From Minisyncoccota bacterium (GTDB lineage: Bacteria; Patescibacteriota; Minisyncoccia; Minisyncoccales; JAQTVQ01): DNA of 64,000 nt. The first letter of the stretch is position 1, and each line of letters starts with the position of its first letter. Made by a program: the position numbers and the translations under genes. Positions 3-41,738 of this stretch are shown here, in pieces. Location of the stretch: NCBI GenBank assembly GCA_041657385.1, contig JBBABZ010000003.1:8820-72819 (forward strand). Direction: 5' to 3'. A model generated the notes under the pieces. It was not told where the DNA came from and made no database searches. It worked only from the letters and a program-made list of their open reading frames with translations.

Positions 3-536
3 GATTGGGTTGAGGTGCTGGAAATAAAAAATAAAAAATATCAATTTAAAAAATACTCAAATAATGATTGCGGCTTTTTTTATCGCTCAAGTATTTTTAA
101 AAAGAAAGCGCCTAATATGATTATTATCTCAGCTCAATTATCTTTGAGCCAAGGCGGAAAAGAAGCGATAGAAGCAAAGATGAAAGAATATGCCGATTAT
201 CGCAAAGCAAGGCATCCATTGGCTTTTCCTTCTGCCGGCAGCGTATTCAAGAATCACGCCAAGCCGATAAAAAACAAAAGCTTGCTTGCGCAATTTCCGG
301 ATCTGGCCGTCTTTAATCAAAAAGGGGAAATACCCGCCGGCTGGCTGATAGCCAAGGCCGGGCTGACCGGAAAAAAAATCGGCGGCGCGCAAATTTCCGA
401 AAAGCATTCCAATTTTTTCGTGAACTTGGGCAATGCCAAAGCCAAAGACATCCGCGCTTTGATAAAATTTGCAAAAAGGAAAGTCAAAAAAGTTTTCGGG
501 ATAGATTTGAAAGAAGAAATAATTTATTTGTCGTGA
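3..536 (+). CDS. murB: UDP-N-acetylenolpyruvoylglucosamine reductase MurB, C-terminal portion (5' end lies outside window)
   Basis: ORF 15..536 is open in frame to the window edge. It carries the MurB C-terminal domain signature (PSAGSVFKNH ... GAQISEKHSNFFVNLGNAKAKDIRALI). Confidence 0.7.
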   Translation, partial: DWVEVLEIKNKKYQFKKYSNNDCGFFYRSSIFKKKAPNMIIISAQLSLSQGGKEAIEAKMKEYADYRKARHPLAFPSAGSVFKNHAKPIKNKSLLAQFPDLAVFNQKGEIPAGWLIAKAGLTGKKIGGAQISEKHSNFFVNLGNAKAKDIRALIKFAKRKVKKVFGIDLKEEIIYLS

Positions 537-798
537 ATTTCAAATGATTTTTTGATTATTGGACTTTTGCGTATGTTTGAAAATTGAATAAATGAAAATT
601 TATTGAAAATTAGAAATTGAAAATTGAAAATTTTTTCGAAAATAGTTTTCCACATATTGACAAATATTTCCAATGATTGAAAATAAAATAAAGAAGAAAT
701 TCTTTTAAAAAATATCGAAGATTTAGCAGGTAGTGGTCGGCTGCTTGCAGTGATATTCAAGATTTTAATAATTTTTTTAAATTTAAATTAAAAATAAA

Positions 799-861
799 AT
801 GGCTACAAAAAAACCAGCTAAGAAAGCAGCTAAAAAAGTTGCCAAAAAAGGCAAGAAATAG
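799..861 (+). CDS. hypothetical 20-aa lysine/alanine-rich peptide (MATKKPAKKAAKKVAKKGKK)
   Basis: ATG at 799 and TAG at 859-861, found by hand (below the ORF-track size cutoff). A strong intrinsic terminator follows immediately. No similarity is claimed. Confidence 0.25.
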   Translation: MATKKPAKKAAKKVAKKGKK

Positions 862-870
862 TTTTCCTAA

Positions 871-907
871 GCAACCTCCTCTCTCAACGAAAGGAGGTTG
901 CTTTTTT
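871..907 (+). terminator. rho-independent terminator
   Basis: Stem GCAACCTCC (871-879) pairs with GGAGGTTGC (893-901), followed by a T6 run. Confidence 0.6.
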
Positions 908-930
908 AAAAAGCCGTAATCGTAAAAAAT

Positions 931-1278
931 ATGCAAATCATTTTCAGAGCCAATAGAGAATTTTTATTAAGGCCGGAGCTTGAAGATTTTTTCCGGCAAA
1001 AAATGGAGAAACTGGAAAAATTTTTACAAGGAGTTGAACCGATAAAGATGGAGTTGGAAGTTTCTTTGGCTTCCGACCGTTTGCGCAAGGGGAGCTTGTT
1101 CTCCGCCAAAGCGCAATTGTGCTTGCCGAGAAAAAATCTAAGAGCCAGCGGCGAGGGAAGAACAATAAGAAACGCGATGATAGAAACGCGCGACGAGCTC
1201 GAAGAGCAGATCAAAAAATATATGACCCAGCCCATAGCGAAAAAACGATCAGAGAAAAAAGAAAGGAAAGCGTTCTAA
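931..1278 (+). CDS. hpf: ribosome hibernation promoting factor / RaiA (YfiA family)
   Basis: 115 aa with an N-terminal MQI...N pattern and the size and charge profile of sigma-54 modulation / HPF proteins. It is followed by a terminator. Confidence 0.7.
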   Translation: MQIIFRANREFLLRPELEDFFRQKMEKLEKFLQGVEPIKMELEVSLASDRLRKGSLFSAKAQLCLPRKNLRASGEGRTIRNAMIETRDELEEQIKKYMTQPIAKKRSEKKERKAF

Positions 1279-1300
1279 AAAACAAACCAACCCTATAAAA

Positions 1301-1332
1301 AAGATGCACAGGCGCCGCCTGGGCATCTTTTT
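1301..1332 (+). terminator. rho-independent terminator after hpf
   Basis: Stem GATGCACAGG pairs with CCTGGGCATC (one mismatch), followed by TTTTT. Confidence 0.65.
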
Positions 1333-1543
1333 AATTTTGTTTTCCAGCGCTTTGATTTTTTTGGCAAAAGCGATACAATAAGAAAGCTTTTATGGGTCAA
1401 TACCCCGCATATTATGCATCGGAGCTTGTCCCAAGAGGATTCCAAAGGGGTGCCCCCTTTGGCCGTAAAATCGGGGTAGAGACCCCGATTGCGGAGTCAA
1501 ATGGAAAATATAAAATTTGTTAGCAGTACAATAACATTCGATT

Positions 1544-4039
1544 ATGTCAATTTTCAGCAATTTATTCGGCAATTCCAACCAAAAATATCTTGAAAGGATC
1601 CAGCCCTTAATGGAAGAAATAAACGGGCTGGAGAAAGAGCTTGAAAAGCTTTCCGACGATCAGCTGAAGGATAAAACTGCGGAATTCCGAGAGTCTTTAA
1701 AGAATGGGAAAACCTTGGACGATCTTTTGCCGCAAGCTTTTGCCGCGGTGAGAGAGGCCGCCAGGCGCAATTTAAAACAGCGCCATTTTGACGTGCAATT
1801 GATAGGAGGTATTGTTTTGCATCAAGGGCGCATCGCTGAAATGAAAACAGGAGAGGGAAAAACTTTGACCGCCACTTTGCCGGTCTATTTGAACGCGCTT
1901 GAGCAAAAAGGATGCCATTTGATAACGGTCAACGATTATCTGTCCCGCCGCGATGCCGTTTGGATGGGCCAAATTTATAATGCCCTCGGGCTTTCGGTCT
2001 CCTGCTTGAACCACGAGCAATCTTTTCTATATGATCCGGGTTATAAAAAGGAAGACGACCAAAGCGATAAGAAGAGAGACGACTTGGGAGGTTTTTATAT
2101 TGTAGAAGATTATCTTAGGCCTTGCTCCAGGAAAGAAGCGTATCTTGCCGACATCACTTACGGCACCAATAATGAATTTGGTTTTGATTATTTGCGCGAC
2201 AATATGGTTTTTGATCTGGAGGATAAAGCCCAAAGGGATTTGAACTTTGCCATCATTGATGAAGTTGATTCTATTTTGATAGACGAAGCGCGCACGCCTT
2301 TGATCATTTCCGCGCCCGATGCGGAAAGCTCTAATTGGTATAAAGAATTTGCCCGCCTTATTCCGAAAGTTACCAAAGGAGATTACGAAATAGATGAAAA
2401 GCTGAAAGCAGTCACTTTGACCGAAGAAGGCATTAAGAAAATTGAAAATATTTTGGGGGTGGAAAATATCTATGAAGAAAAAGGAATAAAATATCTCCAC
2501 TTTTTGGAACAAGCTTTGCGCGCCCAAACTCTTTTTGAAAAAGATAAGGATTATGTTATTCGCAACGGCGAAGTTATTATCGTTGACCAGTTCACCGGAC
2601 GGTTGATGCCCGGACGCCGCTGGTCCGGCGGGCTGCATCAAGCTATTGAAGCCAAGGAGGGAGTGGCAGTCCAGCCGGAATCGCTTACCTTGGCCACAGT
2701 TACTTTTCAAAATTATTTCAGGATGTATAAAAAGATCGCGGGAATGACCGGAACAGCCGCGACCTCGGCTGAAGAATTCGATAAAGTTTATAAATTGGAG
2801 GTAGCTGTTATTCCGACCAATAAAAAATTAGACAGGAGCGATTCGCCTGACCGGGTCTATAAAACCGAATTGGGAAAATTTAAAGCCGTTGTCGAAGAAA
2901 TAGAGCAAAGGCATAAATTGGGCCAGCCTGTTTTGGTTGGCACCACTTCGATCCAAAAAAATGAGCTGCTGGCCAGGATCCTTGAAAAAAAGACCGGTAT
3001 CGCTTTTGAAGTTTTGAATGCCAAGAACCACGAGAGGGAAGGGCAGATCATCGCCCAAGCTGGAAGACTGGGGGCGGTTACTATTGCCACCAATATGGCT
3101 GGCAGAGGCGTGGATATTCTTCTGGGCGGCAATCCGCCCGATCCGCAGAAAGCGGAAAAGGTCCGCGCCCTTGGCGGACTGCATATCATTGGAACGGAAC
3201 GCCACGAAGCGAGGCGCATTGATAATCAGCTGCGAGGACGCGCCGGCCGCCAGGGAGATCCGGGTTCTACCCAGTTTTTTGTTTCCTTAGACGATGATCT
3301 GATGAGGATCTTCGGGGATAATTTGAAATCCGTGATGGAAAAATTCAATTTGCCCGATGATCTGCCCTTGGAGCATGGCATCATCAGCCGGAGCATTGAA
3401 TCAGCTCAATCGAAAGTTGAGGGAATGAACTTTGACTCCCGCAAGCATCTTTTGGAATACGATGATGTTTTGAACAAACACAGGGAAGTTTATTACCAAA
3501 AGAGAAAAGATCTTTTATCAAAAGATCCGGAGCAGCTTAAGTTTTACGCTCTTGAGATACTCGAAAAAGCGCAATTGTCTTTGGAAGAATACGCCAAAAA
3601 AGAAAATAGCGCCGGCTTTGGCCCAATGAGGCAAATGGAAAAAACTATTTGCTTGAGGATTTTTGATATGCTTTGGATGGAGCATTTGGAGAATATGGAA
3701 AGCTTGAGAGATTCGGTCCGATTAAGAGCGTATGGCCAGCGCGATCCTTTAGTGGAATACAAAAGCGAGGGGCATCGTATGTTCCAGCAGCTTTTAGATA
3801 CTATGGAAAAAGTTGCGGCCAATTCCATCGCGAAGGCTAACATCAGCCCCAGCGTCCAGATTTTACCATCCGGAACTCAAAGACCGGAGTTGCCAAAGGG
3901 GGCTGTTAGTGCTAAAATTTTCAATCAGAATTCAGGATTGAAGCTTGGCCGTAATGATCCGTGCCCCTGCGGGAAGATAGACCCTCAAACGAAGAGGCCG
4001 ATGAAGTACAAAAAGTGCTGCTATCCGAAATACGGATAA
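1544..4039 (+). CDS. secA: preprotein translocase ATPase SecA
   Basis: 831 aa with the SecA DEAD motor (MKTGEGKTLTATLPVYLNAL) throughout and a C-terminal Cys-rich zinc-binding tail (CPCGK...KKCC). Confidence 0.97.
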   Translation: MSIFSNLFGNSNQKYLERIQPLMEEINGLEKELEKLSDDQLKDKTAEFRESLKNGKTLDDLLPQAFAAVREAARRNLKQRHFDVQLIGGIVLHQGRIAEMKTGEGKTLTATLPVYLNALEQKGCHLITVNDYLSRRDAVWMGQIYNALGLSVSCLNHEQSFLYDPGYKKEDDQSDKKRDDLGGFYIVEDYLRPCSRKEAYLADITYGTNNEFGFDYLRDNMVFDLEDKAQRDLNFAIIDEVDSILIDEARTPLIISAPDAESSNWYKEFARLIPKVTKGDYEIDEKLKAVTLTEEGIKKIENILGVENIYEEKGIKYLHFLEQALRAQTLFEKDKDYVIRNGEVIIVDQFTGRLMPGRRWSGGLHQAIEAKEGVAVQPESLTLATVTFQNYFRMYKKIAGMTGTAATSAEEFDKVYKLEVAVIPTNKKLDRSDSPDRVYKTELGKFKAVVEEIEQRHKLGQPVLVGTTSIQKNELLARILEKKTGIAFEVLNAKNHEREGQIIAQAGRLGAVTIATNMAGRGVDILLGGNPPDPQKAEKVRALGGLHIIGTERHEARRIDNQLRGRAGRQGDPGSTQFFVSLDDDLMRIFGDNLKSVMEKFNLPDDLPLEHGIISRSIESAQSKVEGMNFDSRKHLLEYDDVLNKHREVYYQKRKDLLSKDPEQLKFYALEILEKAQLSLEEYAKKENSAGFGPMRQMEKTICLRIFDMLWMEHLENMESLRDSVRLRAYGQRDPLVEYKSEGHRMFQQLLDTMEKVAANSIAKANISPSVQILPSGTQRPELPKGAVSAKIFNQNSGLKLGRNDPCPCGKIDPQTKRPMKYKKCCYPKYG

Positions 4040-4082
4040 TCTTGTTTGACTTAATAACAAATTAATTTTATAGTAGAAAACG

Positions 4083-5501
4083 ATGTCTAAGAAAAATACC
4101 GTTTTGAGTTTGCTTTTCATTATTATTTTAGCGGTTGCGGCCGGCTTTTTTTGTTTTCCCAAATATCTCAACCAAGGGATAGATTGGGCCAATAAAATAA
4201 GCGGCTTAGGGATATATAAGGTTTCGGAAAATGAATTCAGGATGGGACTGGATCTCAAAGGCGGAGTGCGCTTGGAATACCAAGCTGAATTAAAAGATAT
4301 TAAGGCTGAAGACAGAAGCAACGCGATGGAAGGATTGAAAGATGTCATTGAGAGAAGAATCAATGGTTTTGGCGTTGCCGAGCCGCAGATCACCGTTTCC
4401 GGGGGCAACCGTTTAATGGTTGAACTGCCGGGGGTGGAGAATATTGAGGACGCCAAAGAATGGATCGGCCAAACTCCTTGGCTGGAATTCTTAGAGGAAA
4501 GAAATGCGAGCGATACAGAGATGATCATTGCGAAGAGAAAAGAAGTACAGGCTGTTGGAAATGATATGGAAAAAATTCAGCAGATCCCTGATTGGCAACT
4601 GGCCTTGGAAAATCCTTACTATATAAAAACGGAGCTGACCAGCCGTTATTTTAAAAAAGCCGCTTTAAGCTATGATCAAACCAGCAATGATCCGGTCATT
4701 GAAATAGAATTCAAGGACGATGGCGCCAAGCTTTTTGAACAAATTACCGAGAGGAATATCGGGAAAACCCTTGCTATAATGTTGGACGGCCAGTCTATCA
4801 TTGATGTGGGAGCAGGAGCGGTCTACGCTCCGAAAATTGACGAAAAGATCAGCGGCGGGAAAGCGGTTATCACCGGGCAGAAAGATATAAAGCAGGCTAA
4901 AATGATCGTTTCAAGGCTTAATCAGGGAGCTTTGCCGGTGCAGATCGGCCAGCCGATCAGCGAAAGCAAGATAGGCCCGACTTTAGGCAAAGTTTCGCTC
5001 AACGACACTTTGAAAGCCGGATTATTGGGATTTTTGCTGATCATTATCTTTATGGTCGTTTATTACCGCTTGCCTGGCTTGCTGGCTTCGCTGGCTTTGG
5101 TTTTTTATGCATTTTTGTTGCTGGCCATCTTCAAATTAATTTCAGTAACATTAACATTGGCAGGCATCGGAGGAGTTATTCTTTCGATTGGAATGGCTAT
5201 TGATGCCAACGTGCTGATCTTTACCAGAATGAACGAAGAGCTGAAACAGGGCAAGAGCTTCGGACAAAGCGTGGAAGAAGGATTCAACAGAGCTTGGCCG
5301 GCCATCCGCGACGGCAACGCCACAACATTATTAGTGGGATTTATTCTGTTGTTTTTGGGAACCAGTTTTGTTAAAGGATTTGCGACCACTTTGAACATCG
5401 GAATTTTGCTTTCAATGTTCACGGCGATCGTTGTCACCAGAACATTTTTAAGACTGTTCGTTGGAACTAAATTAGAAAAAATAACTTGGCTTTGGAAATA
5501 A
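4083..5501 (+). CDS. secD: protein translocase subunit SecD
   Basis: N-terminal TM helix, periplasmic domain (LDLKGGVRLEYQ), C-terminal 6-TM SecD/SecF block. Confidence 0.93.
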   Translation: MSKKNTVLSLLFIIILAVAAGFFCFPKYLNQGIDWANKISGLGIYKVSENEFRMGLDLKGGVRLEYQAELKDIKAEDRSNAMEGLKDVIERRINGFGVAEPQITVSGGNRLMVELPGVENIEDAKEWIGQTPWLEFLEERNASDTEMIIAKRKEVQAVGNDMEKIQQIPDWQLALENPYYIKTELTSRYFKKAALSYDQTSNDPVIEIEFKDDGAKLFEQITERNIGKTLAIMLDGQSIIDVGAGAVYAPKIDEKISGGKAVITGQKDIKQAKMIVSRLNQGALPVQIGQPISESKIGPTLGKVSLNDTLKAGLLGFLLIIIFMVVYYRLPGLLASLALVFYAFLLLAIFKLISVTLTLAGIGGVILSIGMAIDANVLIFTRMNEELKQGKSFGQSVEEGFNRAWPAIRDGNATTLLVGFILLFLGTSFVKGFATTLNIGILLSMFTAIVVTRTFLRLFVGTKLEKITWLWK

Positions 5502-5505
5502 TCTT

Positions 5506-6435
5506 ATGACAATCAATTTTCTTAAATATAAAAATTTCTTTTTCTTTTTTTCTTTGCTTGTCATTATTTCTTGTATTGCCTTGATGATCATCTGGCCTTT
5601 AAAGCCAAGCATTGAATTCACCGGCGGCAGCGTTTTGGAGATAAAATACCAAGACAATCGTCCGGCTACCCAAGAAGTGCAAGATAAAATAAAAGACCTG
5701 GGGTTAGGCGATGTCGTTATCCAGCAAGTAGAAGATAAAGGCCTTGTTCTAAGAATGCAGTCAACGTCTGAAGAAGTTGAAGGCATCCATCAAAAAGTCA
5801 TTGAAAAACTGAAAGAAACCGGCAATTTTGAAGAGCAAAGTTTTGAAGCTATCGGGCCGGTTGTCGGCAGAGAACTTTACCAAAAAACAGTCCTTTTGGT
5901 GATCGTTTCGCTGACCGCGATGCTTTTATATATTGCTTTCGCCTTTAGGAATGTTCCGGGGCCTGTCAGTCCTTGGATCTACGGATTAGCTTCTTTTTTA
6001 ATGCTTGTCCACGATGTCGTTGTCCCGCTGGGAGTTTTTTCCATCCTTGGAAAATTTTACGGAGTTCAAGTTACCATACCGATCATTACCGCCTTGTTAA
6101 CAGTGGTTGGATACGCGATCAACAATGTGATCGTGGTTTATGACCGAACAAGAGAAAACCTTCAAAGGACCAGGAACATTAATTTTGCCGAGATAGCCAA
6201 TCTCTCTATCAATCAAACTTTAAGCAGGCAGATAAATACTTCTTTAGCCGTATTATTTCCCTTATTCGCCATGTATTTTATAAGCGGAGTCGCTTTAAAA
6301 TATTTCTCTTTAGCTTTAATTTTGGGAATAATCACCGGAACTTATTCTTCGATCTTTTTAGCTACGCCTATATTGGTGGCTTGGTTAAATTTTCGTAATA
6401 GCAGGCAAAAAGCCAAAATCGGCAAAAAGAGATAG
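5506..6435 (+). CDS. secF: protein translocase subunit SecF
   Basis: Lies directly downstream of secD. Carries the FTGGSVLEI motif and C-terminal SecDF TM helices. Confidence 0.9.
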   Translation: MTINFLKYKNFFFFFSLLVIISCIALMIIWPLKPSIEFTGGSVLEIKYQDNRPATQEVQDKIKDLGLGDVVIQQVEDKGLVLRMQSTSEEVEGIHQKVIEKLKETGNFEEQSFEAIGPVVGRELYQKTVLLVIVSLTAMLLYIAFAFRNVPGPVSPWIYGLASFLMLVHDVVVPLGVFSILGKFYGVQVTIPIITALLTVVGYAINNVIVVYDRTRENLQRTRNINFAEIANLSINQTLSRQINTSLAVLFPLFAMYFISGVALKYFSLALILGIITGTYSSIFLATPILVAWLNFRNSRQKAKIGKKR

Positions 6436-6591
6436 GCTCCGCGATTGGGGAGTTAGCCCCGATCTTGCGGCAAAGGGTCGTCCCTTTTGCCGCCATCTTT
6501 CGCATAACTACGCGAAGCTATGACAAAGTGGGATGATCTTCTTAGTGCGCTTCCGATGGGGTATTCAGTAAAGATATCCACAGGTTCGTTA

Positions 6592-6620
6592 TTGACAAAA
6601 ATACTAAAAAGTAGTATAAA
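6592..6620 (+). promoter_or_regulatory. sigma70-type promoter (-35 TTGACA, 17-nt spacer, -10 TATAAA)
   Basis: TTGACA at 6592-6597 and TATAAA at 6615-6620, 10 nt upstream of the ATG at 6630. Confidence 0.5.
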
Positions 6621-6629
6621 AAAAAGGTC

Positions 6630-7691
6630 ATGGATAACGATTTTAAGAAATTTTCTTCAAAACTTTTAGAAGGTTTCCCCTTGCGCAACAAAGAGGTCGT
6701 TTTGCGCAGGTTTGGCTTAACTGAAAGCCAAAAAATGGAAACACTTGAAGCTATCGGCAAAGATTATAAGATCACCCGCGAACGCGTCAGGCAGATCGAA
6801 AATGACAGCTTGAAAAAGCTGAAAGAGAAGATCAAAACTCCAAAAATAGAATCAGAGTTTAAAAATCTGGAATCATATATTTCAGCCGTCTTAAAGCAGT
6901 ACGGCGGTATTAGAAGAGAGGATAAGCTTTTGGCTAATTTAACTGCGGAAAAAAACAAGAATTTCGCCTACTTTATTCTTTCTTTGAGCCCTTTATTCCA
7001 AAGGCTTGATGAAGGAAACGGCTGTTATTCCGTCTGGACTTCCAACAAGGAAACTTTTGAGCTGGCAAAATCATTGTGCCAATCGTTTGAAGTAAAGTTT
7101 CAAAAACTGGAAAAAACATTAACCGAACAGGAAGTTTTTGATATTTACGAAAAAGAGCTAAAGACGCAATTTAATATTTCTTTTGCAAAAGAAGCATTTT
7201 TTTCTTATCTGGAGATTTGCTGCCGTTTGGCGAAAACCGTTGATCAAAAATGGGGTTTGGTCTCTTGGGCGGAAGTCAGTCCCAAAACCATAAAAGACAA
7301 AATAGGAATGGTTCTAAAGTGCGAAAATAAACCTTTGCATTTTCAAGATATCTCTCGCTTGATCGAACAATTGAACGGCAGGCTGGAGAATGTCAAAAAG
7401 ATGTCGCCGCATATTCAAACGGTTCATAATGAGCTGATCAAAAACAATAATTTTGTTTTAGTCGGCAGGGGGATGTATGCCCTTAAAGAATGGGGATATG
7501 AATCCGGCCAGGTTAAAGACATAATTGCAAAGGCTTTAAAAGACGCTTCACAGCCCCTCACCAAAGAAGAGATCATCCAGATCGTGGCCAAGCAGAGAGC
7601 CGTGAAGGAATCAACTGTTTTATCAAGCTTAAGAAACAAGAATCTTTTTGGCAAAGACGAATCCGGCAGATATCAAATCCGTGAAGCCTAA
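6630..7691 (+). CDS. sigma-70 region 4 (HTH) domain-containing protein with ~290-aa C-terminal domain of unknown function
   Basis: N-terminus (LEGFPLRNKEVVLRRFGLTESQKMETLEAIGKDYKITRERVRQIENDSLKKLK) matches the sigma-70 region 4 HTH consensus. Regions 1-3 are absent. Confidence 0.6.
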   Translation: MDNDFKKFSSKLLEGFPLRNKEVVLRRFGLTESQKMETLEAIGKDYKITRERVRQIENDSLKKLKEKIKTPKIESEFKNLESYISAVLKQYGGIRREDKLLANLTAEKNKNFAYFILSLSPLFQRLDEGNGCYSVWTSNKETFELAKSLCQSFEVKFQKLEKTLTEQEVFDIYEKELKTQFNISFAKEAFFSYLEICCRLAKTVDQKWGLVSWAEVSPKTIKDKIGMVLKCENKPLHFQDISRLIEQLNGRLENVKKMSPHIQTVHNELIKNNNFVLVGRGMYALKEWGYESGQVKDIIAKALKDASQPLTKEEIIQIVAKQRAVKESTVLSSLRNKNLFGKDESGRYQIREA

Positions 7692-7831
7692 AAGAGGCGT
7701 TATCTTTTTTTGCAATTTTAGCGTTCTTGTGGGATTATTAAATTGTTATTTTCTAATCCGTTTCAAAGTTTCCGAAAGAAATTTTCTAATCTTATTTCAA
7801 AATTTTCTAGTTGGAAATTAGCTTGTCTTAA

Positions 7832-9133
7832 ATGACAGACCCAGAAACCCTAAAAATCCTTTATCAAATCTTCGGGGCGATCAGCTCCTTTTTTTCGTTT
7901 TGCTGGGAAATTTTTAAGATTTTTTGGTGGATCTTGCCGCCGATCATTTTATTTGAGCCGTTAAAAGAATGGTATCTCAAATTCAAACAGAACGGATGGG
8001 TCAGCAAGCAGAGTTTTATTTTATTGGAATTGAAGATGCCCCGGCAGGAATTAAAGCCGATCAAGGCAATGGAAAATGTTTTTGCTACGCTTTGGAGCAC
8101 TTACGATCCGCCCAACAAAAAAGAAAAATGGTTTGAAGGAAAAATTTTGCTTTATTTCACCTTGGAAATAAACAGTATTGAAGGCGTGCCTCATTTTTAT
8201 ATCCGTATTTCCAAGGCCTTAAGAAAGACAGTGGAATCGGCTGTCTATTCTCAATTTCCGGCCGTTGAGATCTCCGAGGTTCCTGATTATGTCAAAAATG
8301 TTCCTTCGGGCCTGCCGAATAAAGATTGGGATATTTGGGGATGCGATTATGTCCAGTCGAAAAGCGATGCTTATCCGATAAAAACTTACCGTCAATTTTT
8401 TCAAGAGAGCGAAGGGTTGAAAGAGGAAAAACAAATAGAGCCTTTGGCCGCTTTACTGGAAGGGCTGGCCCGTTTTGAAAAAGGAGAACAGCTTTGGATC
8501 CAGATAATGACCCGGCCGATCACTGTGGCAGAAGATAATTATGTCCAAAGAGGAAAAGACGAGATCAATAAATTGGTTGGCCGTCCGGAAAAGGTTGGAA
8601 GAAAATCGTTGTTCAAAGAGTTTTTTGATCTGATCTTTTTCAATATAGCCCCCGGGGGAGCCAAAGAGGGAGAGAAACCGATCATTCCTTCGGAAATGAA
8701 ATTAACGCCAGGGGAAAGGGATGTAGTGCAGATCATCGGCGAAAAAATTTCCAAGCCGGCTTTTTCCACTAATATCAGATTTGTTTATGTGGCCAAAAGA
8801 GAGAATTTTTTCGGCGCTATGAAATTAATCCCAATGGCTTTTTTCAACCAGTTCAACACCCAAAATTTGAACGGCCTGAAACCTTATGGCAAAACAGCTA
8901 CTAAAGTCCAAGCCCCCGCTTTTTTTGTCGGAGCCAGAACTTATTTAAAAAAAAGGATCATGTATCAGAGATTTTGCGATAGAGAAAAAATAGGCGAGGC
9001 ATCTTTTATCCTAAATACTGAAGAGCTGGCTACTATTTTTCATTTTCCGACTTTGGAATCCGTCTCTGAAGCTATCTTGCCCAGGATCGAAACTAAAAAA
9101 GGCAGTCCGCCCTTGGAATTGCCCATTGAATAA
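7832..9133 (+). CDS. hypothetical membrane protein genetically coupled to TraD/VirD4-like ATPase
   Basis: 433 aa with a hydrophobic N-terminal segment (IFGAISSFFSFCWEIFKIFWWILPPIILF). It lies immediately upstream of the coupling-protein-like ATPase, in the same orientation. Confidence 0.55.
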   Translation: MTDPETLKILYQIFGAISSFFSFCWEIFKIFWWILPPIILFEPLKEWYLKFKQNGWVSKQSFILLELKMPRQELKPIKAMENVFATLWSTYDPPNKKEKWFEGKILLYFTLEINSIEGVPHFYIRISKALRKTVESAVYSQFPAVEISEVPDYVKNVPSGLPNKDWDIWGCDYVQSKSDAYPIKTYRQFFQESEGLKEEKQIEPLAALLEGLARFEKGEQLWIQIMTRPITVAEDNYVQRGKDEINKLVGRPEKVGRKSLFKEFFDLIFFNIAPGGAKEGEKPIIPSEMKLTPGERDVVQIIGEKISKPAFSTNIRFVYVAKRENFFGAMKLIPMAFFNQFNTQNLNGLKPYGKTATKVQAPAFFVGARTYLKKRIMYQRFCDREKIGEASFILNTEELATIFHFPTLESVSEAILPRIETKKGSPPLELPIE

Positions 9134-9174
9134 TGTTATCATAGGGGAAGAGATATCAGTTTAAGCCAATCCAA

Positions 9175-11037
9175 ATGAAGGAAGAGATCAATTTTTTCGC
9201 TCAAACTAATTTTCGCAATCAGCTCAAAAAATTTGGCATCAAAACCGACGATCGCCGCCGGCATTTTTATGTAGTGGGAAAGACCGGCATGGGCAAGACA
9301 GAGATGATCAAGAATATGGCCATCCAGGATATCAGGAACGGCAAAGGCGTCGGCTTTGTGGACCCTCACGGAGAAGCTTCAATGGAGCTTTTGGAATTTG
9401 TCCCGAAAGAACGCATCAAAGATGTTATTTATTTCAACCCATCCGACTTGGACTGGCCGATATCTTTTAATATTATGGAAAATGTCTCTCTTGAATACCG
9501 CCATTTAGTGGCTGGCGGGCTGATGGGCGTTTTCAAAAAAATATGGCCTGATGTTTGGTCAGCCAGAATGGAATATATTTTAAACAATGCCATTTTAGCC
9601 TTGCTGGAAATTCCTGGATCAACTTTGCTTTCCATTAACCGGCTTTTTTCCGATGTTGATTGGAGGCAGGAAGTGGTGGCCCAGTTGAAAGATTCGGTCG
9701 TTAAGGCTTTTTGGGTTAAAGAATTTGCCCGCTATACCCAGAAATATGAGATCGAAGCGACAGCTGCCATCCAGAATAAGATCGGCCAATTCGTTTCCGC
9801 TCCGCTGATCAGGAATATTATCGGCCAGCCTAATTCCACGATCGATATGCGTAAAATAATGGACGAGAAAAAGATCTTGATATTAAACCTTTCCAAAGGA
9901 TTGGTGGGAGAGGACAATTCAAGGCTTTTAGGCGCCCTTTTGATCACTAAATTACAATTGGCCGCAATGTCGCGCGTGGACATACCCGAAGAGCAAAGAA
10001 ATGATTTTTATCTTTATGTCGACGAGTTTCAAAATTTTGCCACGGATTCTTTCGTCAATGTTTTGTCCGAAGCCCGCAAATACCGTTTGGCTTTAATTTT
10101 AGCCAACCAATACATCGCCCAGCTTACAGAATCCAATAGCGGCGGCCATAACACAAAGGTTAGGGACGCGGTTTTCGGCAATGTGGGAACAATGATCCTT
10201 TTCAGAGTAGGAGCCGAAGATGCAGAATTTTTAGAAAGGGAGTTTTCTCCAGAGTTCGAAGCGCCAGACCTGGTCAATCTTTCCAAATACAATATTTATG
10301 CGAAGCTTATGATAAACGGCGCTTCTTCCCGGCCTTTTTCCGCTCAAACTTTAATGCCCGAACCGCGGCCCGCCCAGTCTTTTAAAAATGAGATCATCGA
10401 TTTTTCCCGTAAAAATTACAGCAATGCGAAACGAACAGTTGAAGAAAGTATTGCCAATGTGGCTGAAACTTCAATTGACAGCAAGGGGCAAATCCAGCAA
10501 AAAGGACCGGTTGAAATTTTTGAAGATATTTGCCAGATTTGCGGCAAGAAGACCAGGATCACTTTCCGTCCAGACGGCAAAAGGCCGGTTTTTTGCCCCG
10601 CCTGTTTTAAAAGAATTGGAAAAGAGCGGCTAGAGGCGCAATTGACCAGCCAGAAAAGAACTTTTAACGGTTTGGCGGGAATGTCTTTGGCCGAAGCTAT
10701 GCAAGAAGAGCCAGTTTCTTTCAGTGGAAAGAAAAAAGAAGAAGACAGCGAAACAAGAGGAGAGGATAAACCCAAAAAAAAGAAAAAAGAAGTCCGGCTT
10801 GACGATTTGCGTTCGGTTTTAAAAGGGATCTCGGATAGAAACAAGGAAAAAGAGGAGGCCTCCCCTGATGAGGTTTTTCCAGGAGATAAGGCCGAAGAAG
10901 AGGGAGAGTTGGGTTTGGGAAGCTTGGAGCCCGAGAAAAAAGAAAATGGCGGAACAAGCATCCAAACAAACGATGGCCAGCCCGCGAAAAGCAAGATCGA
11001 GAAGATAGATCCGGGGCAAGTGGTCAAATTTAACTAA
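9175..11037 (+). CDS. TraD/TraG/VirD4-family (type IV coupling protein-like) P-loop ATPase with C-terminal zinc ribbon and acidic/lysine-rich tail
   Basis: Walker A GKTGMGKT, VDPHGE motif and Walker B FYLYVDEFQNFAT. C-terminus carries CQICGKK...FCPACFKR (CxxC...CxxC) followed by low-complexity EEDSETRGEDKPKKKKKE. A paralogue lies at 54839..56383. Confidence 0.7.
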   Translation: MKEEINFFAQTNFRNQLKKFGIKTDDRRRHFYVVGKTGMGKTEMIKNMAIQDIRNGKGVGFVDPHGEASMELLEFVPKERIKDVIYFNPSDLDWPISFNIMENVSLEYRHLVAGGLMGVFKKIWPDVWSARMEYILNNAILALLEIPGSTLLSINRLFSDVDWRQEVVAQLKDSVVKAFWVKEFARYTQKYEIEATAAIQNKIGQFVSAPLIRNIIGQPNSTIDMRKIMDEKKILILNLSKGLVGEDNSRLLGALLITKLQLAAMSRVDIPEEQRNDFYLYVDEFQNFATDSFVNVLSEARKYRLALILANQYIAQLTESNSGGHNTKVRDAVFGNVGTMILFRVGAEDAEFLEREFSPEFEAPDLVNLSKYNIYAKLMINGASSRPFSAQTLMPEPRPAQSFKNEIIDFSRKNYSNAKRTVEESIANVAETSIDSKGQIQQKGPVEIFEDICQICGKKTRITFRPDGKRPVFCPACFKRIGKERLEAQLTSQKRTFNGLAGMSLAEAMQEEPVSFSGKKKEEDSETRGEDKPKKKKKEVRLDDLRSVLKGISDRNKEKEEASPDEVFPGDKAEEEGELGLGSLEPEKKENGGTSIQTNDGQPAKSKIEKIDPGQVVKFN

Positions 11038-11054
11038 TTTAACAAATTAAAAAT

Positions 11055-12221
11055 ATGCGTACACTCAAACAAACAGATGTCCGAGATCAAAAAGTTTTAG
11101 TGCGTTGCGATTTCAATGTGCCTTTGGATGGAAGCGGCCAAATTTCTGATAATTTCAGGATATTAAAGACTCTGCCCACGATAAAATATTTAATTGAAAA
11201 AAATGCCAAGATAATTTTGATCAGCCACCTCGGATCGCCAAAAGGAAAGGATCCGAAATGCAGCTTGAGGCCGATAGCAGCGGAGCTTTCCAACCTCTTG
11301 GGGCAGGAAGTGAAATTTTTGAATGACTGCGCGGGCTCGGAAGTCGAAAAAGCCGTTAAAGAGATGGAAAAGAGGCAGGTTATTCTTTTGGAAAACTTGA
11401 GATTTTATAAAGAAGAAGAAAAAAACGATCCGCAATTTGCCAAAAAATTAGCCGGATTGGCGGATGTTTTCATCCAGGACGGTTTCGGCGTTTGCCACAG
11501 GGCGCACGCTTCAGTTACGGGAGTCGCCGCTCTTTTGCCTTCAGCCGCGGGGATGCTGCTTGAAAGAGAAGTGGAAGTTTTAAATAAGATCTTGGAAGAT
11601 CCTTACCGGCCTTTGGTGGCGATCATCGGCGGAGCAAAAATTTCTACAAAAATAAGAGTCATCAAAAAATTATTAGACAAGGCCGATCATCTGCTGGTGG
11701 GAGGGAAGATCGCCAACGCTATTCTGGCCATCAAAGGCATTTGCGTCAGAGAGCCGCTGCCCCAGGAGGCGGAGGAAGTTTTGAAAGACGTGGAGGCTAT
11801 GGATTTGACCGATCCTAAGTTGCATTTGCCGATTGACGGAGCGATGTCTTTAGCCAATTTGGATGAAAAGTATTTGAGGATCGGAGCGGTTGGAACGGTG
11901 CGCAAAGAAGAGGAGATTTTTGATGTGGGGCCGGAAACGATCGCTAATTTTAAGAATATTATCGCTTCCGCTAAAATGATCATTTGGAACGGGCCCCTGG
12001 GCTATTCCGAAATAAGGCCTTTTGAAAAATCCAGTTTGGAAATCGCCAAAGCCATCAAGCAAAGCTCTGCTTTTTCAGTGATCGGCGGAGGGGAAACCGT
12101 GGAATTCGTCACTAAGATCGGAATGCTTGATGATTTCGATCATGTTTCCACAGGCGGCGGCGCGATGCTTGATTTTCTTGCCGGAAAAATATTGCCGGGC
12201 CTTGAAGTTTTAAAAAATTAA
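11055..12221 (+). CDS. pgk: phosphoglycerate kinase
   Basis: 388 aa with PGK motifs (VRCDFNVPLDG, ILISHLGSPKG, GGGAMLDFL). Confidence 0.95.
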   Translation: MRTLKQTDVRDQKVLVRCDFNVPLDGSGQISDNFRILKTLPTIKYLIEKNAKIILISHLGSPKGKDPKCSLRPIAAELSNLLGQEVKFLNDCAGSEVEKAVKEMEKRQVILLENLRFYKEEEKNDPQFAKKLAGLADVFIQDGFGVCHRAHASVTGVAALLPSAAGMLLEREVEVLNKILEDPYRPLVAIIGGAKISTKIRVIKKLLDKADHLLVGGKIANAILAIKGICVREPLPQEAEEVLKDVEAMDLTDPKLHLPIDGAMSLANLDEKYLRIGAVGTVRKEEEIFDVGPETIANFKNIIASAKMIIWNGPLGYSEIRPFEKSSLEIAKAIKQSSAFSVIGGGETVEFVTKIGMLDDFDHVSTGGGAMLDFLAGKILPGLEVLKN

Positions 12222-12311
12222 AAAATTTTGAATGGCGATCCAAAAAATCATTAATTTTATATAATTTTGAAAAACGGCTGGTGCTATTCCGGCCGTTTCC
12301 AATTAGAAAGT

Positions 12312-13559
12312 ATGGCTCTGGAAAAAATCAAAAATCTTGAAAAAGCCGCCAAGCGGATAAAAGAAGCCGTCAAAGATCAGGAGCAGATCATTATTTACGC
12401 TGATTCCGATATGGACGGCGTGAGTTCGGCTATTATTTTGAAAGAATCGATAAACAACATCGCTTATTCCGTTTTAAAAGAAGGCCAGTCTCTCCCTCCT
12501 ATCCAGTTTTATCATCCTGATCGCAAAACTGAAGGGTATGGCCTTAATCGAACCGCATTGGAATTTTTAAGTGAAAAATTTTCCACTCCCTTTAAAGAGG
12601 GAGCAAAAAAGAAGGTTAAAAAAGCCAAGCTTGGACTTTTGATAACTTTGGACTGCGGCATTACCAATTTTGAAGAAGTTGAGATGGCCAGATCTTTAGG
12701 TTTTTTTGTCTTGCTGATAGACCATCATCAAGTCCTGGATAAAATGCCTAAGGCCGATATCGTCGTTGACCCGAACCAAGAAGGGGATAAAACTTTTAAA
12801 AGTTTTGCCAATGCCGGATTAACTTTCCAGCTGGCCAAGGAACTTTTGGGCGAGTCTATGTCGCAAGGTTTGCGTTCAAGCTTTTTAGAGCTGGCGGCCT
12901 TGGCAACCATTGCGGATATGATGCCGGAAGTGGAAGAAAATAGCGATATCATCATGGAAGGATTGTCCAGCATTCAAAATTCCCACCGGCCGGGCATCAA
13001 AGTTTTTTTTGAAATTTTTAATTTAAAAGATTTTGTTTCCAAAAGAGATCTGATCTCAAAAATGGTTTCCGTTTTAAATGTCGCTTCGGTCAGGCCGGAT
13101 CATCAGCACGATTGCTATTTGCTTTTAACGACCGGCAATTACGATCTGGCCAAATTGACGGTCCAATCTCTTTTGGAAAAAAGCGGCCGCCGCCATGAAG
13201 AATTAAAAGGCCTGGAAGAAGAAGTAAGATATATCGTCAACAGCAAGAACGGGTCGCCGGTCATTTTTGAAGGTTCCAAAAATTGGGATATTGAATTGCT
13301 CGGAGCCGTGGCTTCCCGCATTGTCCGCGAGTTTCAAAAACCAACTTTTATTTATACAATGAAAGAAGGATCAAGCCGGGGGTCGGTCAGAGCGCCGAAA
13401 GGCATGGATGTGGTTAAAGCTATGGCGGACAGCGCCGATTTATTGGAGATGTTCGGCGGGCATCCTCCGGCCGCGGGATTTACAGTTAAAAATGAGAATT
13501 TAGAAAAATTCAGAGATAAGCTGATCGAATATTTCAGCCGTCATAAAGCGCAAAATTGA
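12312..13559 (+). CDS. DHH/DHHA1 family phosphoesterase (RecJ-like exonuclease / nanoRNase-like)
   Basis: DHH motif (LLIDHHQV) and DHHA1 GGH motif (FGGHPPAAGF). Start chosen at ATG 12312 (MALEK). The upstream part of ORF 12267 overlaps a hairpin that is probably the pgk terminator. Confidence 0.8.
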   Translation: MALEKIKNLEKAAKRIKEAVKDQEQIIIYADSDMDGVSSAIILKESINNIAYSVLKEGQSLPPIQFYHPDRKTEGYGLNRTALEFLSEKFSTPFKEGAKKKVKKAKLGLLITLDCGITNFEEVEMARSLGFFVLLIDHHQVLDKMPKADIVVDPNQEGDKTFKSFANAGLTFQLAKELLGESMSQGLRSSFLELAALATIADMMPEVEENSDIIMEGLSSIQNSHRPGIKVFFEIFNLKDFVSKRDLISKMVSVLNVASVRPDHQHDCYLLLTTGNYDLAKLTVQSLLEKSGRRHEELKGLEEEVRYIVNSKNGSPVIFEGSKNWDIELLGAVASRIVREFQKPTFIYTMKEGSSRGSVRAPKGMDVVKAMADSADLLEMFGGHPPAAGFTVKNENLEKFRDKLIEYFSRHKAQN

Positions 13560-13648: not shown

Positions 13649-14674
13649 ATGAATTTATCCCAGCTTTTTAAGTCTCGTTTTTTTTCATCCATTGGGAAAA
13701 AACTGAAAAAAATCAAACAAAAAGGCCTCAGGGCCTTCACCCTCATTGAGCTTCTGATCGTCATCGCCATCGTTGCCATTCTCGCCGCGGTTATCATTGT
13801 CGGAACCAGCAGCGCCCAAGCCTCTGCCCGCGATGCCGGCCGTTTAAGCGATCTGTCTCAAACCAAGAAAAGCCTGCAAGCCTACTATCTGGCCTATAAC
13901 AGCTATCCAACCACCAGCGAAGACGGTATCTCGCTGGAAGAGAACGCTACCTTCACCCAAACAATGAAAAACAGCGGATATATGTCCACCGTCCCCAGGG
14001 ATCCGAAATACACCGCTTCCGCCGGAGAATATACCTACAAATATATCTCCACCGCTTCCGATGCCTTCACCCTTTGCGCCAAGTCCGAGGCCAAGAGCGG
14101 CAATTACTTCTGCGCCACCCAAGACAGCGGCGAGGTCAGCCAGACCTCCAGCGCCCCAGTGTTCGGTGTCTGGGGAGGCGGGGGGACTATAACAGTTTTT
14201 AAATCACCAACAGCAACAGGAGACGATTATAATGATTGGTTATTCCCCACTAACGCATATTTTAGCGATGATTTGTATGCCGAGATGACTAGCGCTTTAC
14301 CGGAGGATCAACCGGAGTATCAAGATTATTATAATTTTTCATTCAATATTCCTTCTGGTGCCTCTATCAATGGCGTTGAGATCTCTATTGAGGCGAGAAA
14401 GTATTTCATCCCAGAAACAGATTCTTTTATTTATATTGAATTATCATACGATGGCGGAATAAATTATACTAGTACTGGAAAATGGAAAAGGTTTGGTGAA
14501 TCAGAGGAAATAAAAATCTATGGAAGTCCAACTGATATATGGGGAAGGACCTGGTCGGATAGTGAATTCTCTAACAGCAATTTTAGGGTAAGAATTTCAC
14601 ATGACAGAACCCTTGATGCTTCTTCGCCTGCGTTAGACCATGTTCAAGCTAAAGTTTATTATACGTCGCCTTAA
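13649..14674 (+). CDS. type IV pilin / pseudopilin (prepilin-type N-terminal cleavage-methylation domain)
   Basis: N-terminal KGLRAFTLIELLIVIAIVAILAAVII is the class III signal/prepilin motif. It is followed by a Ser/Thr-rich globular domain. Confidence 0.8.
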   Translation: MNLSQLFKSRFFSSIGKKLKKIKQKGLRAFTLIELLIVIAIVAILAAVIIVGTSSAQASARDAGRLSDLSQTKKSLQAYYLAYNSYPTTSEDGISLEENATFTQTMKNSGYMSTVPRDPKYTASAGEYTYKYISTASDAFTLCAKSEAKSGNYFCATQDSGEVSQTSSAPVFGVWGGGGTITVFKSPTATGDDYNDWLFPTNAYFSDDLYAEMTSALPEDQPEYQDYYNFSFNIPSGASINGVEISIEARKYFIPETDSFIYIELSYDGGINYTSTGKWKRFGESEEIKIYGSPTDIWGRTWSDSEFSNSNFRVRISHDRTLDASSPALDHVQAKVYYTSP

Positions 14675-25319: not shown

Positions 25320-26585
25320 ATGGAAGAGAAATTCGTTATAAAAGGAGGCAAATATCTGTCAGGGGAAGTAGAAATAGGGGGTTATAAAAATGCGGCCGGA
25401 CCGGCGTTGGCCGCAGCCTTATTGACGGAAGAAGAATGCCGGCTGTCCAATATGCCGTTAGTGGAAGATGTTTTCCGGCTTGTTGAAGTTTTGAAGGGAA
25501 TGGGAGCGGAAATTTCATGGGTAGGCAAAAATGAATTAAAAATAAAAGCCGGATCTAATCTTGATCCGAATAAGATCGATCCGTTGTTGGTCAGTAAATC
25601 CCGCATATCCGTTCTGCTTATAGGAGCTTTGGCTGCCCGCTTTAAAGAGTTCAAGATCGCTCATCCGGGCGGCGATCGGATCGGCTTAAGGCCGATTTTT
25701 ACGCATCTCAAAGCGTTAGAAGCTTTGGGGGTAAGATCTTTCGCCGAAGATAATTTTTATCATTTCAAAAGAGAAGAGTTAAAAGGGGCAGAAGTTATTT
25801 TGAAGGAATTTTCCGTGACTGCCACCGAGAATTTGATTTTGGCCGCGGTTTTAGCCGAAGGAACTACCGTTATCAAAATTGCGGCTGCCGAACCTCAAGT
25901 CCAGGATCTTTGCTTCCAGCTTGTTCAGATGGGAGCTAAGATCGAAGGGATCGGCACTCATACTTTAAAAATAGAAGGGCAGAAAAAGCTTTCGGGAGTC
26001 AACTATCGCATCATTCCCGATGTTAATGAATCCGCAACTTTTATTGCCGCTAGCGTTTTTACTAAAGATAAAGTCAAGGTCATTAATGCTCTGCCGGATC
26101 ATCTAGATCTGTTCTTGGATAAATTGCAAGAAATGGGAGTTAATTTAAAAAAGGGAAAAGACTTTGTGGAGGTTTACGCTTCCCCCGATTTGCGTGCTGT
26201 GCGCATTCAAGCTTTGCCTTTCCCGGGTTTTGCCACTGATTTTTTACCCGTAACTTTGCCGCTTCTAACCCAAGCTGTCGGGAAAAGCTTGATCCATGAT
26301 CCTCTTTACGAAAACAGGCTTAACTATACTCAAGAGCTTAAAAAGATGGGAGCGGATATTGAAATAGTCGATCCCCACCGCGTTATTGTTTTTGGCAAGA
26401 CCCCTTTGAGCGGGGTTGATATCGAAAGCTGGGACATCAGAGCTGGCGCCTCGCTTGTCATTGCCGGGCTTTTCGCCAAAGGCACGACCGTAGTGAAGAA
26501 TATTTATCAGATCGACCGCGGCTATGAAAAAATGGAAGAAAAACTCCAAAAGATGGGAGCGGATATTAAAAGGATTAAAGTTTAG
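25320..26585 (+). CDS. murA: UDP-N-acetylglucosamine 1-carboxyvinyltransferase
   Basis: 421 aa EPSP-synthase-fold MurA (KNAAGPALAAALL, catalytic loop region). Confidence 0.95.
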   Translation: MEEKFVIKGGKYLSGEVEIGGYKNAAGPALAAALLTEEECRLSNMPLVEDVFRLVEVLKGMGAEISWVGKNELKIKAGSNLDPNKIDPLLVSKSRISVLLIGALAARFKEFKIAHPGGDRIGLRPIFTHLKALEALGVRSFAEDNFYHFKREELKGAEVILKEFSVTATENLILAAVLAEGTTVIKIAAAEPQVQDLCFQLVQMGAKIEGIGTHTLKIEGQKKLSGVNYRIIPDVNESATFIAASVFTKDKVKVINALPDHLDLFLDKLQEMGVNLKKGKDFVEVYASPDLRAVRIQALPFPGFATDFLPVTLPLLTQAVGKSLIHDPLYENRLNYTQELKKMGADIEIVDPHRVIVFGKTPLSGVDIESWDIRAGASLVIAGLFAKGTTVVKNIYQIDRGYEKMEEKLQKMGADIKRIKV

Positions 26586-26595
26586 AAAAAAATAT

Positions 26596-37413: not shown

Positions 37414-37424
37414 ATCTTTTTCAA

Positions 37425-41666: not shown

Positions 41667-41738
41667 GCGGGTGTCGTATAACGGCTATTATGGTTCCTTC
41701 CCAAGGAACAGACGGCGGTCCGACTCCGCTCACCCGCT
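41667..41738 (+). tRNA. tRNA-like element, possible tRNA-Gly(CCC) or pseudo-tRNA abutting recombinase 3' end
   Basis: Acceptor GCGGGTG/CACCCGC, perfect anticodon arm GTTCC-TTCCCAA-GGAAC (U33, CCC, A37), T-arm GGCGG-TCCGACT-CCGCT (T-loop has C55), weak D-arm. It competes with an alternative 11-bp hairpin (GCCCGCCTTCGC/GCGAAGGCGGG). No CCA encoded. Confidence 0.3.

Follow-up and report, generated by a model that had tools for sequence, protein, structure and literature searches.

What role does a TraD/VirD4-like ATPase play when its gene lies in a housekeeping region of a patescibacterial chromosome, directly behind the gene of a predicted membrane-anchored protein? The question is raised by two adjacent open reading frames (ORFs), here called A and B, in a stretch of 64,000 nucleotides (the window) from the Minisyncoccota bacterium assembly GCA_041657385.1 (contig JBBABZ010000003.1, positions 8,820 to 72,819 of the forward strand). 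A first-pass annotation, made from the letters of the window, described the pair as a membrane protein followed by a TraD/VirD4-like ATPase and proposed a DNA translocation or uptake module serving a symbiotic, DNA-scavenging lifestyle, rather than a conjugation module. The present analysis indicates that A and B are very probably the two halves of one Patescibacteria-wide ATPase composed of a membrane helix, a DUF8128 domain and a VirD4/TrwB-type motor, and that the Paceibacteria (Parcubacteria) lineage, to which the window belongs, carries a fission of this phylum-wide gene. The best overall explanation, which we moderately favor, is a split ATPase of the DUF8128-type IV coupling protein (T4CP) kind that couples to a type IV secretion system (T4SS).

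The relationship between the two ORFs is best seen in proteins where they form a single chain. In the phage protein family phrog_5156 (824 positions), A matches positions 49-311 and B then matches positions 408-812. The best phage match of B is gp156 of Bacillus phage G (825 aa), the C-terminal half of which is 27% identical to it, and the hhalign alignment between the A family and gp156 (97% probability, E 1e-10) covers gp156 residues 48-315 and ends at an invariant EELATIFHFP-like motif. A search with gp156 retrieved about 90 proteins of Patescibacteria (725-1142 aa), the named sources being Berkelbacteria, Falkowbacteria, Saccharibacteria and Gottesmanbacteria, which hold PF26449 (DUF8128) together with TrwB_AAD_bind (PF10412), DUF87 and TraG-D_C in one chain. 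Counts of fused proteins refer to a set of 119, and those of N-terminal helices to 92 fused forms from the Candidate Phyla Radiation (CPR) and 27 phage-clade proteins. By BLASTP, 86 of the 119 were matched by both A and B, and in all 86 the two parts are colinear with the A part first. The median identity of B to the fused C-terminal halves is 42%, and it reaches 54% with a Berkelbacteria protein. The fused junction is continuous ("...PPxNLP...INFFA.TEY...DRR.H.Y..GKTGTGKS", or "...PPxxLP..." leading into "...INFFA.T.Y/F...") and falls exactly at the end of A ("...PPLELPIE*") and the start of B ("MKEEINFFAQTNF..."). Because the A and B parts are fused in other Patescibacteria and in phage G, the window holds a split gene, and for the same reason the large domain of A must lie, like the ATPase, on the cytoplasmic side of the membrane. 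Of the 92 fused CPR forms, 63 have a strong hydrophobic segment at the N terminus, whereas none of the 27 phage-clade proteins has one. In the split lineage, a zinc ribbon and a K/E-rich tail have also been added at the C-terminal end of B.

Sequence profiles and the predicted structure agree in placing B close to coupling proteins, as the first-pass annotation had proposed. Pfam returned TrwB_AAD_bind (8.6e-11, profile positions 9-311 of 387) and TraG-D_C (4.3e-6), and TrwB and DotL were the only matches of B among PDB sequences. By hhalign, B aligned with TrwB over 264 columns (95% probability, E 3e-8) and with TrsK over 294 columns, both alignments spanning its all-alpha insertion with low per-column confidence; alignments with VirB4 proteins ranged from 24 to 86 columns, covering only the P-loop in TrwK/VirB4 and 86 columns around Walker B in TrsE/VirB4. 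The AlphaFold2 (AF2) model of B has a well-predicted core, with the all-alpha insertion (helices at residues 106-230) between Walker A and Walker B. Foldseek searches with this model ranked DotL (1.8e-8), TrwB (2.5e-8, target TM 0.60) and Cagβ at the top, followed by HerA, the VirB4 C-terminal domain and TrwK. A hidden Markov model (HMM) of the B-clade motor gave its highest score to a second ATPase encoded in an integrated element of the window, the island copy (Table 1), and scored gp156 at 210 bits, TrwB at 37, TrsE at 26, TrsK at 21 and CPR VirB4 at 11, with no reported match to FtsK, TrwK or VirB11. B is a member of a distinct and remote clade whose nearest known relatives are the VirD4/TrwB-type coupling proteins. 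Residues D283, E284, F285, Q286, N287 and F288 are invariant in the B alignment, with an hhhhDE pattern at 279-284, and no hydrophobic window indicative of a transmembrane segment was found in B. The zinc ribbon was matched by PF23477 zf_Tbcl_2 (1.5e-10, 41 bits versus a cutoff of 27) and TIGR04272 (2.7e-9, 36.6 bits versus a cutoff of 36). Its cysteines, C453, C456, C474 and C477, are at least 90% conserved in the B alignment, and the ribbon is present in 54 of 69 complete split B orthologs versus 1 of the 119 fused proteins. Of the 130 residues in the tail of B, 20 are K, 20 are E and 9 are D, and the motifs of the tail, SLxEA...PxSF around residues 504-516 and a terminal PGxxVKF, are retained in orthologs that lack the ribbon.

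The description of A as a membrane protein stands for one N-terminal hydrophobic segment but not for the remainder, which is a soluble alpha/beta domain of about 370 residues. The Kyte-Doolittle hydropathy of A (19-residue window) exceeds 1.6 only at residues 23-41, and its AF2 model (pLDDT 80.5, pTM 0.76) has one long helix at residues 4-59 ahead of the soluble domain, which ends at an invariant EELATIFHFP motif (residues 397-406, nt 9020-9049). A 100%-identical database protein and most homologs of A carry a precomputed match to PF26449; local Pfam and NCBIfam scans of A and three homologs gave no match even at E<=10, and the local Pfam copy is taken to lack this entry. The Pfam scan of A also gave no VirB4 match. 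The A family comprises 2618 clusters at 50% identity (E<=1e-3). The only significant PDB matches of the predicted fold are full-length TrwK/VirB4 chains, 13 in all, from structures of the R388 T4SS (E 1e-4 to 1e-2, probability 0.91-1.00, query TM 0.35-0.39), and among the viral models of BFVD the fold matched gp156 (5e-17), the VirB4-like phage G gp155 (1.9e-6) and a protein annotated as "Component of type IV transporter system" (3.9e-4). The P-loop is absent from A, and the VirB4 structure 4ag5/4ag6, which we take to be the C-terminal domain only, is matched by B and missing from the matches listed for A. From these two observations, we infer that the match to TrwK, which was returned without residue ranges, should lie in the VirB4 N-terminal domain. 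The domain of A thus probably adopts a VirB4-N-terminal-like fold, and A would provide a predicted structural context for DUF8128, which Pfam catalogs as a domain of unknown function.

The pair behaves as a fixed part of the chromosome. The A-family profile was run against a collection with one genome per species and found at least 582 relatives; the counts of loci given here refer to the 80 best. Nearly all of these are labeled as Parcubacteria/Paceibacteria or as generic metagenome-assembled genomes (MAGs) of Patescibacteria, with the cultured Ca. Microsyncoccus archaeolyticus and a complete genome of Nealsonbacteria among them. B lies directly 3' of A in 78 of the 80 species, with a median gap of 11 nt between the A stop and the B start (69 loci), and a sigma4/HARE-HTH gene lies directly 5' of A in 77 loci. 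The order secD-secF-(sigma4/HARE-HTH)-A-B-pgk-recJ is kept wherever the contigs permit. B is the best-conserved gene of the secD-recJ block (Table 1), and the GC content at the pair is similar to that of the flanking DNA. The core pair is a chromosomal, vertically inherited unit; its fixed synteny, a divergence that tracks the housekeeping neighbors and the flank-like GC content rule out a mobile-element origin of the core copy. Neither a relaxase nor a T4SS gene was found in the conserved secD-recJ block, the scanned ORFs of the window's core part yielded no relaxase, VirB4 or other T4SS gene, and no recombinase or relaxase lies close to the pair. The first-pass annotation was therefore right that no relaxase or VirB4 gene adjoins the core copy and that the pair is not a conjugation module, and the outcome it had named as damaging, an FtsK-like ATPase with a non-syntenic upstream gene, is the opposite of what was found. 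Two irregular loci were noticed in this survey. MAG CAYNRO01 carries, on a different contig, an additional A-family gene (38% identity) without a B-like gene or the usual neighbors, which may represent either a DUF8128 paralog that stands alone or an error of binning. In one MAG of Staskawiczbacteria, the B ortholog (from locus position 7299 onward) runs into pgk as one 825-aa ORF lacking the zinc ribbon, probably through a frameshift or an assembly error rather than a real fusion.

A link to secretion is provided by the fused orthologs. In a Microgenomates-type genome, the fused ortholog divergently adjoins a cluster of genes for PrgI (VirB3-like), a TrsD-sized ORF, VirB4 and a peptidase M23, beside dnaN; the same layout is seen at 23 of 80 related VirB4 loci, and the cluster has no relaxase. 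Its position beside dnaN matches the oriC-proximal T4SS location described for Patescibacteria in PMC12102498. In Saccharibacteria and Falkowbacteria, the fused ortholog is found amid housekeeping genes, as is the pair in the window. No genomic link of the pair or the fused gene to ComEC, ComF or pilus genes was found, and the T4SS cluster of one lineage is the only genomic link that was found. According to PMC12102498, relaxases are almost absent from Patescibacteria and 5,713 VirD4-type homologs occur in 2,918 of 3,035 genomes. A chromosomal, relaxase-less T4SS is essential for epibiotic growth in the one tested member of the phylum (PMC12102498, PMC12857230). We infer that the orphan VirD4-type homologs are almost certainly the same genes as the family described here. 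Like it, they are near-universal, mostly far from virB4 and without a relaxase, and a number of about two T4CP homologs per genome fits the equation with the DUF8128 family because the window also has two copies. What is already known, then, comes from a survey that counted the genes of this family and from the listing of its N-terminal domain as a DUF. The account of orphan T4CPs in the available part of PMC12102498 mentions no DUF8128 module, split form, zinc ribbon or conserved synteny, and our searches found no literature specific to DUF8128 or to T4CPs in Parcubacteria; relative to the literature examined, the unit in its fused and split forms, the VirB4-like fold of its N-terminal part, the synteny across the class and the gain of the zinc ribbon are new.

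A mechanism can be proposed on this basis. A would enter the cytoplasmic membrane by its single N-terminal helix, and its cytoplasmic VirB4-N-terminal-like domain would dock on an inner-membrane platform, in the way that the N-terminal domain of VirB4 docks on VirB3 and the inner-membrane platform of the T4SS. B would bind A and form a ring as TrwB does; its hexameric assembly, ATPase activity and recruitment of substrate are predicted by analogy with coupling proteins. The ring would use ATP to recruit the substrate and to push it into a membrane channel. Judging from the descent of B from coupling proteins, its zinc ribbon and its basic tail, the substrate would most likely be a nucleic acid or a nucleoprotein. 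The channel would most likely be the chromosomal relaxase-less T4SS of Patescibacteria, the genes of which lie at another place in the genome. In the split form, the zinc ribbon and the basic tail might serve to bind nucleic acids or partners. The specific role of a membrane-docked coupling ATPase for this relaxase-less T4SS is the likeliest of those considered but is held tentatively, as a possibility that falls slightly short of even support.

Several observations weigh against such a role. The tie between DUF8128 and VirB4 consists of predicted-structure matches with low TM-scores, and profile comparisons did not reproduce it: in hhalign, the A family reached no more than 0.25% probability with TrwK, TrsD, TrsE or phage G gp155, and a 117-sequence DUF8128 profile reached no more than 2.4% with CPR VirB4, TrsD-like and PrgI-like profiles, although a positive control that paired TrsD with VirB4, whose relationship is known from the literature, also failed at the same alignment depth, so that this test has little power. 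B is remote from the canonical coupling proteins, as the score of TrwB with the B-clade HMM illustrates. The gene is far from virB4 in the window and in most Patescibacteria. According to PMC12102498, only 148 of the 5,713 T4CP homologs are near virB4, homologs are present in 2,918 genomes versus 2,417 for VirB4, and the T4CP homolog of Southlakia epibionticum, putatively of the DUF8128 type, is non-essential while other T4SS genes are essential.

These same facts on distribution and essentiality speak in favor of the main rival, in which A-B is a T4SS-independent DNA translocase, a membrane-tethered ring that moves DNA in or out alone or with some other channel, for instance to take up DNA as a source of nucleotides or for transformation. 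The idea of uptake for a scavenging lifestyle, put forward in the first-pass annotation, belongs here as a conjecture. Exaptation was raised as a possibility by the authors of PMC12102498, the zinc ribbon and lysine-rich tail gained by the split form are plausible binders of nucleic acids, and recJ is a conserved neighbor. Nucleic-acid binding by the ribbon is, however, an assumption, and A, with only one membrane helix, provides no channel. The pair is not linked to any ComEC, ComF or pilus gene; a type IV pilin/pseudopilin-like gene (N_methyl + T2SSG) at 13649-14674, 2.6 kb downstream of B, the product of which has a long C-terminal extension of about 200 aa, was dropped as a part of the module because no match to it turned up in the 80 related loci, the flanks of which end at about that point. 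According to a review (PMC12857230), S. epibionticum with a mutated comEC is viable, so uptake is not the essential route to nucleotides in that organism. The fused gene, moreover, adjoins a T4SS cluster in one lineage. The distribution data favor an independent translocase and the adjacency data disfavor it, and we consider it unlikely, though a serious contender. Another possibility, also rather unlikely, is that DUF8128-T4CP proteins are a third, hitherto unrecognized branch of the VirB4/VirD4 superfamily, with a VirB4-type docking domain on a VirD4-type motor, and that in Patescibacteria they act as a core machine for moving nucleic acids through the membrane, largely independently of the T4SS. 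If this were true, the family would be a living intermediate between the two T4SS ATPases, and its presence in more genomes than VirB4 and the gain of the zinc ribbon in Paceibacteria would fit.

It is very unlikely that A-B substitutes for FtsK/SpoIIIE as a chromosome translocase at the division site of these reduced genomes. The core housekeeping context, the very strong conservation of the pair, with B the best-conserved gene of its block, and membrane tethering of an ATPase from the same superfamily would all suit such a function. Nevertheless, the hhalign alignment of B with E. coli FtsK comprised just 25 P-loop columns (18% probability), no FtsK_SpoIIIE (PF01580) match was found in B by Pfam, no FtsK appeared in the top 50 Foldseek matches and the all-alpha insertion is of the TrwB type; an FtsK identity of B was rejected on these grounds. 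Finally, in another view, a mobile or defence element left the pair behind or carries it as cargo, and the pair would be either a conjugative/mobilisation coupling protein or a HerA/mad8-like defence ATPase. This view draws on the paralog, the integrated element of which also carries serine recombinases, a Replic_Relax protein and a type I restriction-modification (R-M) system, on relatives in Bacillus phages and on PADLOC matches to mad8 of the methylation-associated defence system MADS (2.9e-15 for B, profile 22-283 of 314; 6e-22 for the island copy). It is scarcely credible for the core pair, which is found at an unchanged chromosomal location in 78 of 80 species with neighbor-like divergence and flank-like GC content, has no relaxase, recombinase or effector gene adjoining it and no relative of A in INPHARED phages (tblastn) or IMG/VR (A profile scan), so that this reading suits the island copy only.

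Table 1 Features of the window and conservation of the proteins of the secD-recJ block (residue numbers refer to the encoded protein).
Feature	Position (nt)	Strand	Description	Median identity to window protein
SecD				51%
SecF				46%
Conserved upstream neighbor of A	6630-7691	+	353 aa; sigma-70 region 4 + HARE-HTH (Pfam)	
ORF A	7832-9133	+	433 aa, DUF8128 (PF26449) protein; putative membrane-anchor/docking half of split ATPase	44%
N-terminal hydrophobic segment of A	7859-7957	+	residues ~10-42; predicted single membrane-anchor helix	
Cytoplasmic alpha/beta domain of A	8009-9067	+	residues ~60-412; VirB4-N-terminal-domain-like predicted fold	
A-B spacer	9134-9174	+	41 nt; equivalent to fission point of fused gene	
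ORF B	9175-11037	+	620 aa, soluble T4CP-like P-loop ATPase	66%
Walker A GKTGMGKT	9277-9300	+	residues 35-42; G35, T37, G38, G40, K41 invariant in B alignment	
Walker B region FYLYVDEFQN	10006-10035	+	residues 278-287; aligns with TrwB Walker B region	
Zinc ribbon CxxC-x17-CxxC	10516-10614	+	treble-clef; residues 448-480; C453, C456, C474, C477	
K/E-rich tail	10615-11034	+	predicted disordered; pLDDT <50	
Pgk				48%
RecJ				44%
Integrated element	41667-62607		bounded by tRNA-Gly + serine recombinase and second serine recombinase	
tRNA-Gly(CCC)	41667-41739		element boundary	
Large serine recombinase	41730-43190	-	overlaps tRNA-Gly 3' end	
hsdM	from 43764		element gene	
DUF2130	from 45219		element gene	
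OLD-family AAA_15/TOPRIM	from 46518		element gene	
hsdS	from 48382		element gene	
hsdR	from 49621		element gene	
Replic_Relax protein	53428-54282	+	PF13814 3.1e-22; upstream of 168-aa ORF and island ATPase	
168-aa ORF upstream of island ATPase	54331-54837	+	not related to A	
Island ATPase, paralog of B	54839-56383	+	514 aa; B-clade HMM 358 bits	
Second serine recombinase	60910-62607	-	other element boundary	

The island ATPase is the second T4CP-like protein of the window (Table 1). Its paralogy with B, which had been proposed from common motifs, was borne out by BLASTP (39% identity over about 360 aa, E 8e-80); the motifs of B and the island copy are GKTGMGKT/GATGTGKT, VDPHGE/IDPHGD and FYLYVDEFQNFAT/FYLYIDEFQNFAT, with YLYxDEFQNFAT common to both. 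The island copy has no DUF8128 partner, transmembrane segment, zinc ribbon or K/E-rich tail, in agreement with the earlier assignment of the last two elements to the core copy alone. The partner genes upstream of the two ATPases had been regarded as unrelated, and this is correct as far as A and the 168-aa island ORF are compared with each other, since hhalign of the A family against the latter gave a probability of 0.07% and the idea of a reduced DUF8128 was rejected; it is not correct in the sense of unrelated to the ATPase, because elsewhere A and the ATPase form one protein, with A as its N-terminal half. The island ATPase is about 37-39% identical both to split B and to the fused forms, and this equal distance implies that it is a mobile-element member of the same clade, lacking DUF8128, rather than a recent duplicate of B. 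The type I R-M system of the element is interrupted by the DUF2130 and OLD-family genes, and the element also holds several ORFs without a family, its GC content falling to 0.32-0.38 in parts. The island ATPase, with its mad8 match, lies just downstream of the type I R-M/OLD cluster, and a defence-linked role for it is conceivable. Just past the second serine recombinase, at 63022-63810, there is a gene for a Tsp45I-type type II restriction endonuclease (E 1e-123).

The other ORFs scanned across the core part of the window are housekeeping genes: secA, secD, secF, pgk, recJ-like, alaS, rpoA and rpsD as well as murA, two mreB, holB, rseP, proS, gatA, murJ and lepA. The conserved gene upstream of A encodes a protein with an N-terminal sigma-70 region 4 and a HARE-HTH domain at residues 220-288, which could be a regulator or DNA-binding partner of A-B or a mere conserved member of a housekeeping operon. 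A promoter and terminator scan of 6300-12400 found sites no more numerous than in shuffled sequence, and no RNA element was found by Rfam near the pair. The two mreB genes (26524-27600 and 31967-33073) encode full-length MreB paralogs (E 1e-130 each) less than 5 kb apart in a bacterium with an ultrasmall genome. An RNase P RNA of the bacterial class A at 36920-37416 scored 103.5 bits versus an Rfam gathering score of 100, and a score so barely above the threshold suggests a divergent RNA.

Patescibacteria, which depend on host cells, make up a very large share of bacterial diversity. The present analysis gives their near-universal orphan coupling-protein homolog a defined architecture, composed of a membrane helix, DUF8128 and a T4CP-type motor, and leads to a testable hypothesis of docking in which DUF8128 would bind VirB3, VirB4 or VirB6, offering a handle on the cargo that crosses the membrane. 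A coupling-type motor with a VirB4-like N-terminal domain, if this predicted likeness is real, would also bear on the divergence of the two T4SS ATPases.

Comparison with known systems brings out what is shared and what is peculiar. The coupling proteins TrwB of R388, DotL, Cagβ and TrsK of pGO1 have in common with B a P-loop motor with an all-alpha insertion; they are its best matches in sequence profile and fold, and B contains a TraG-D_C region. Both also have a variable C-terminal tail, which in TraD and DotL mediates the binding of partners. Unlike these proteins, B has no N-terminal transmembrane domain in its own polypeptide, the one helix being supplied by the separate A, and the N-terminal module is DUF8128, with its predicted VirB4-N-terminal-like fold. 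The zinc ribbon of B is a further difference, as are the lack of a relaxase, the lack of an adjacent T4SS in this lineage and the status of the pair as a chromosomal, vertically inherited core gene unit. FtsK/SpoIIIE and HerA belong with B to the additional-strand catalytic-glutamate (ASCE) P-loop superfamily, but the similarity of B to FtsK/SpoIIIE is limited to the P-loop and B has no transmembrane segment, while HerA structures are found among the lower Foldseek matches, below the coupling proteins.

The likeness of A to the N-terminal domain of VirB4 (TrwK) lies in its predicted fold, which also resembles VirB4-like phage proteins, and the arrangement of A before B recalls TrsD/TrsE of the pGO1 type, where a protein resembling the VirB4 N terminus is encoded just upstream of the ATPase. 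In contrast, A has no detectable sequence similarity to TrwK, TrsD, TrsE or the CPR VirB4 and TrsD-like proteins, and its partner motor B is of the T4CP type rather than a VirB4-type ATPase domain. The same architecture of DUF8128 and ATPase in a single chain is present in gp156 of Bacillus phage G and in phages JL and Slash (phrog_5156), although these proteins are phage-borne and lack the N-terminal membrane helix, and B is only 27% identical to gp156. In phage G, a gene for the VirB4-like gp155 (P-loop_TraG/AAA_10) lies immediately upstream of gp156 (196-4338 of the phage locus), so that gp155-gp156 form a T4SS-style ATPase pair in a jumbo phage, with structural relatives in the Bacillus phages JL and Slash. 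The two-partner concept itself has a counterpart in TraI/TraJ of pIP501, where a soluble T4CP ATPase that has no transmembrane domain is brought to the membrane by a membrane protein with a gene of its own; the likeness is one of concept. TraI/TraJ are plasmid-borne and conjugative, whereas A-B is a chromosomal pair that is fused into one protein elsewhere in the phylum.

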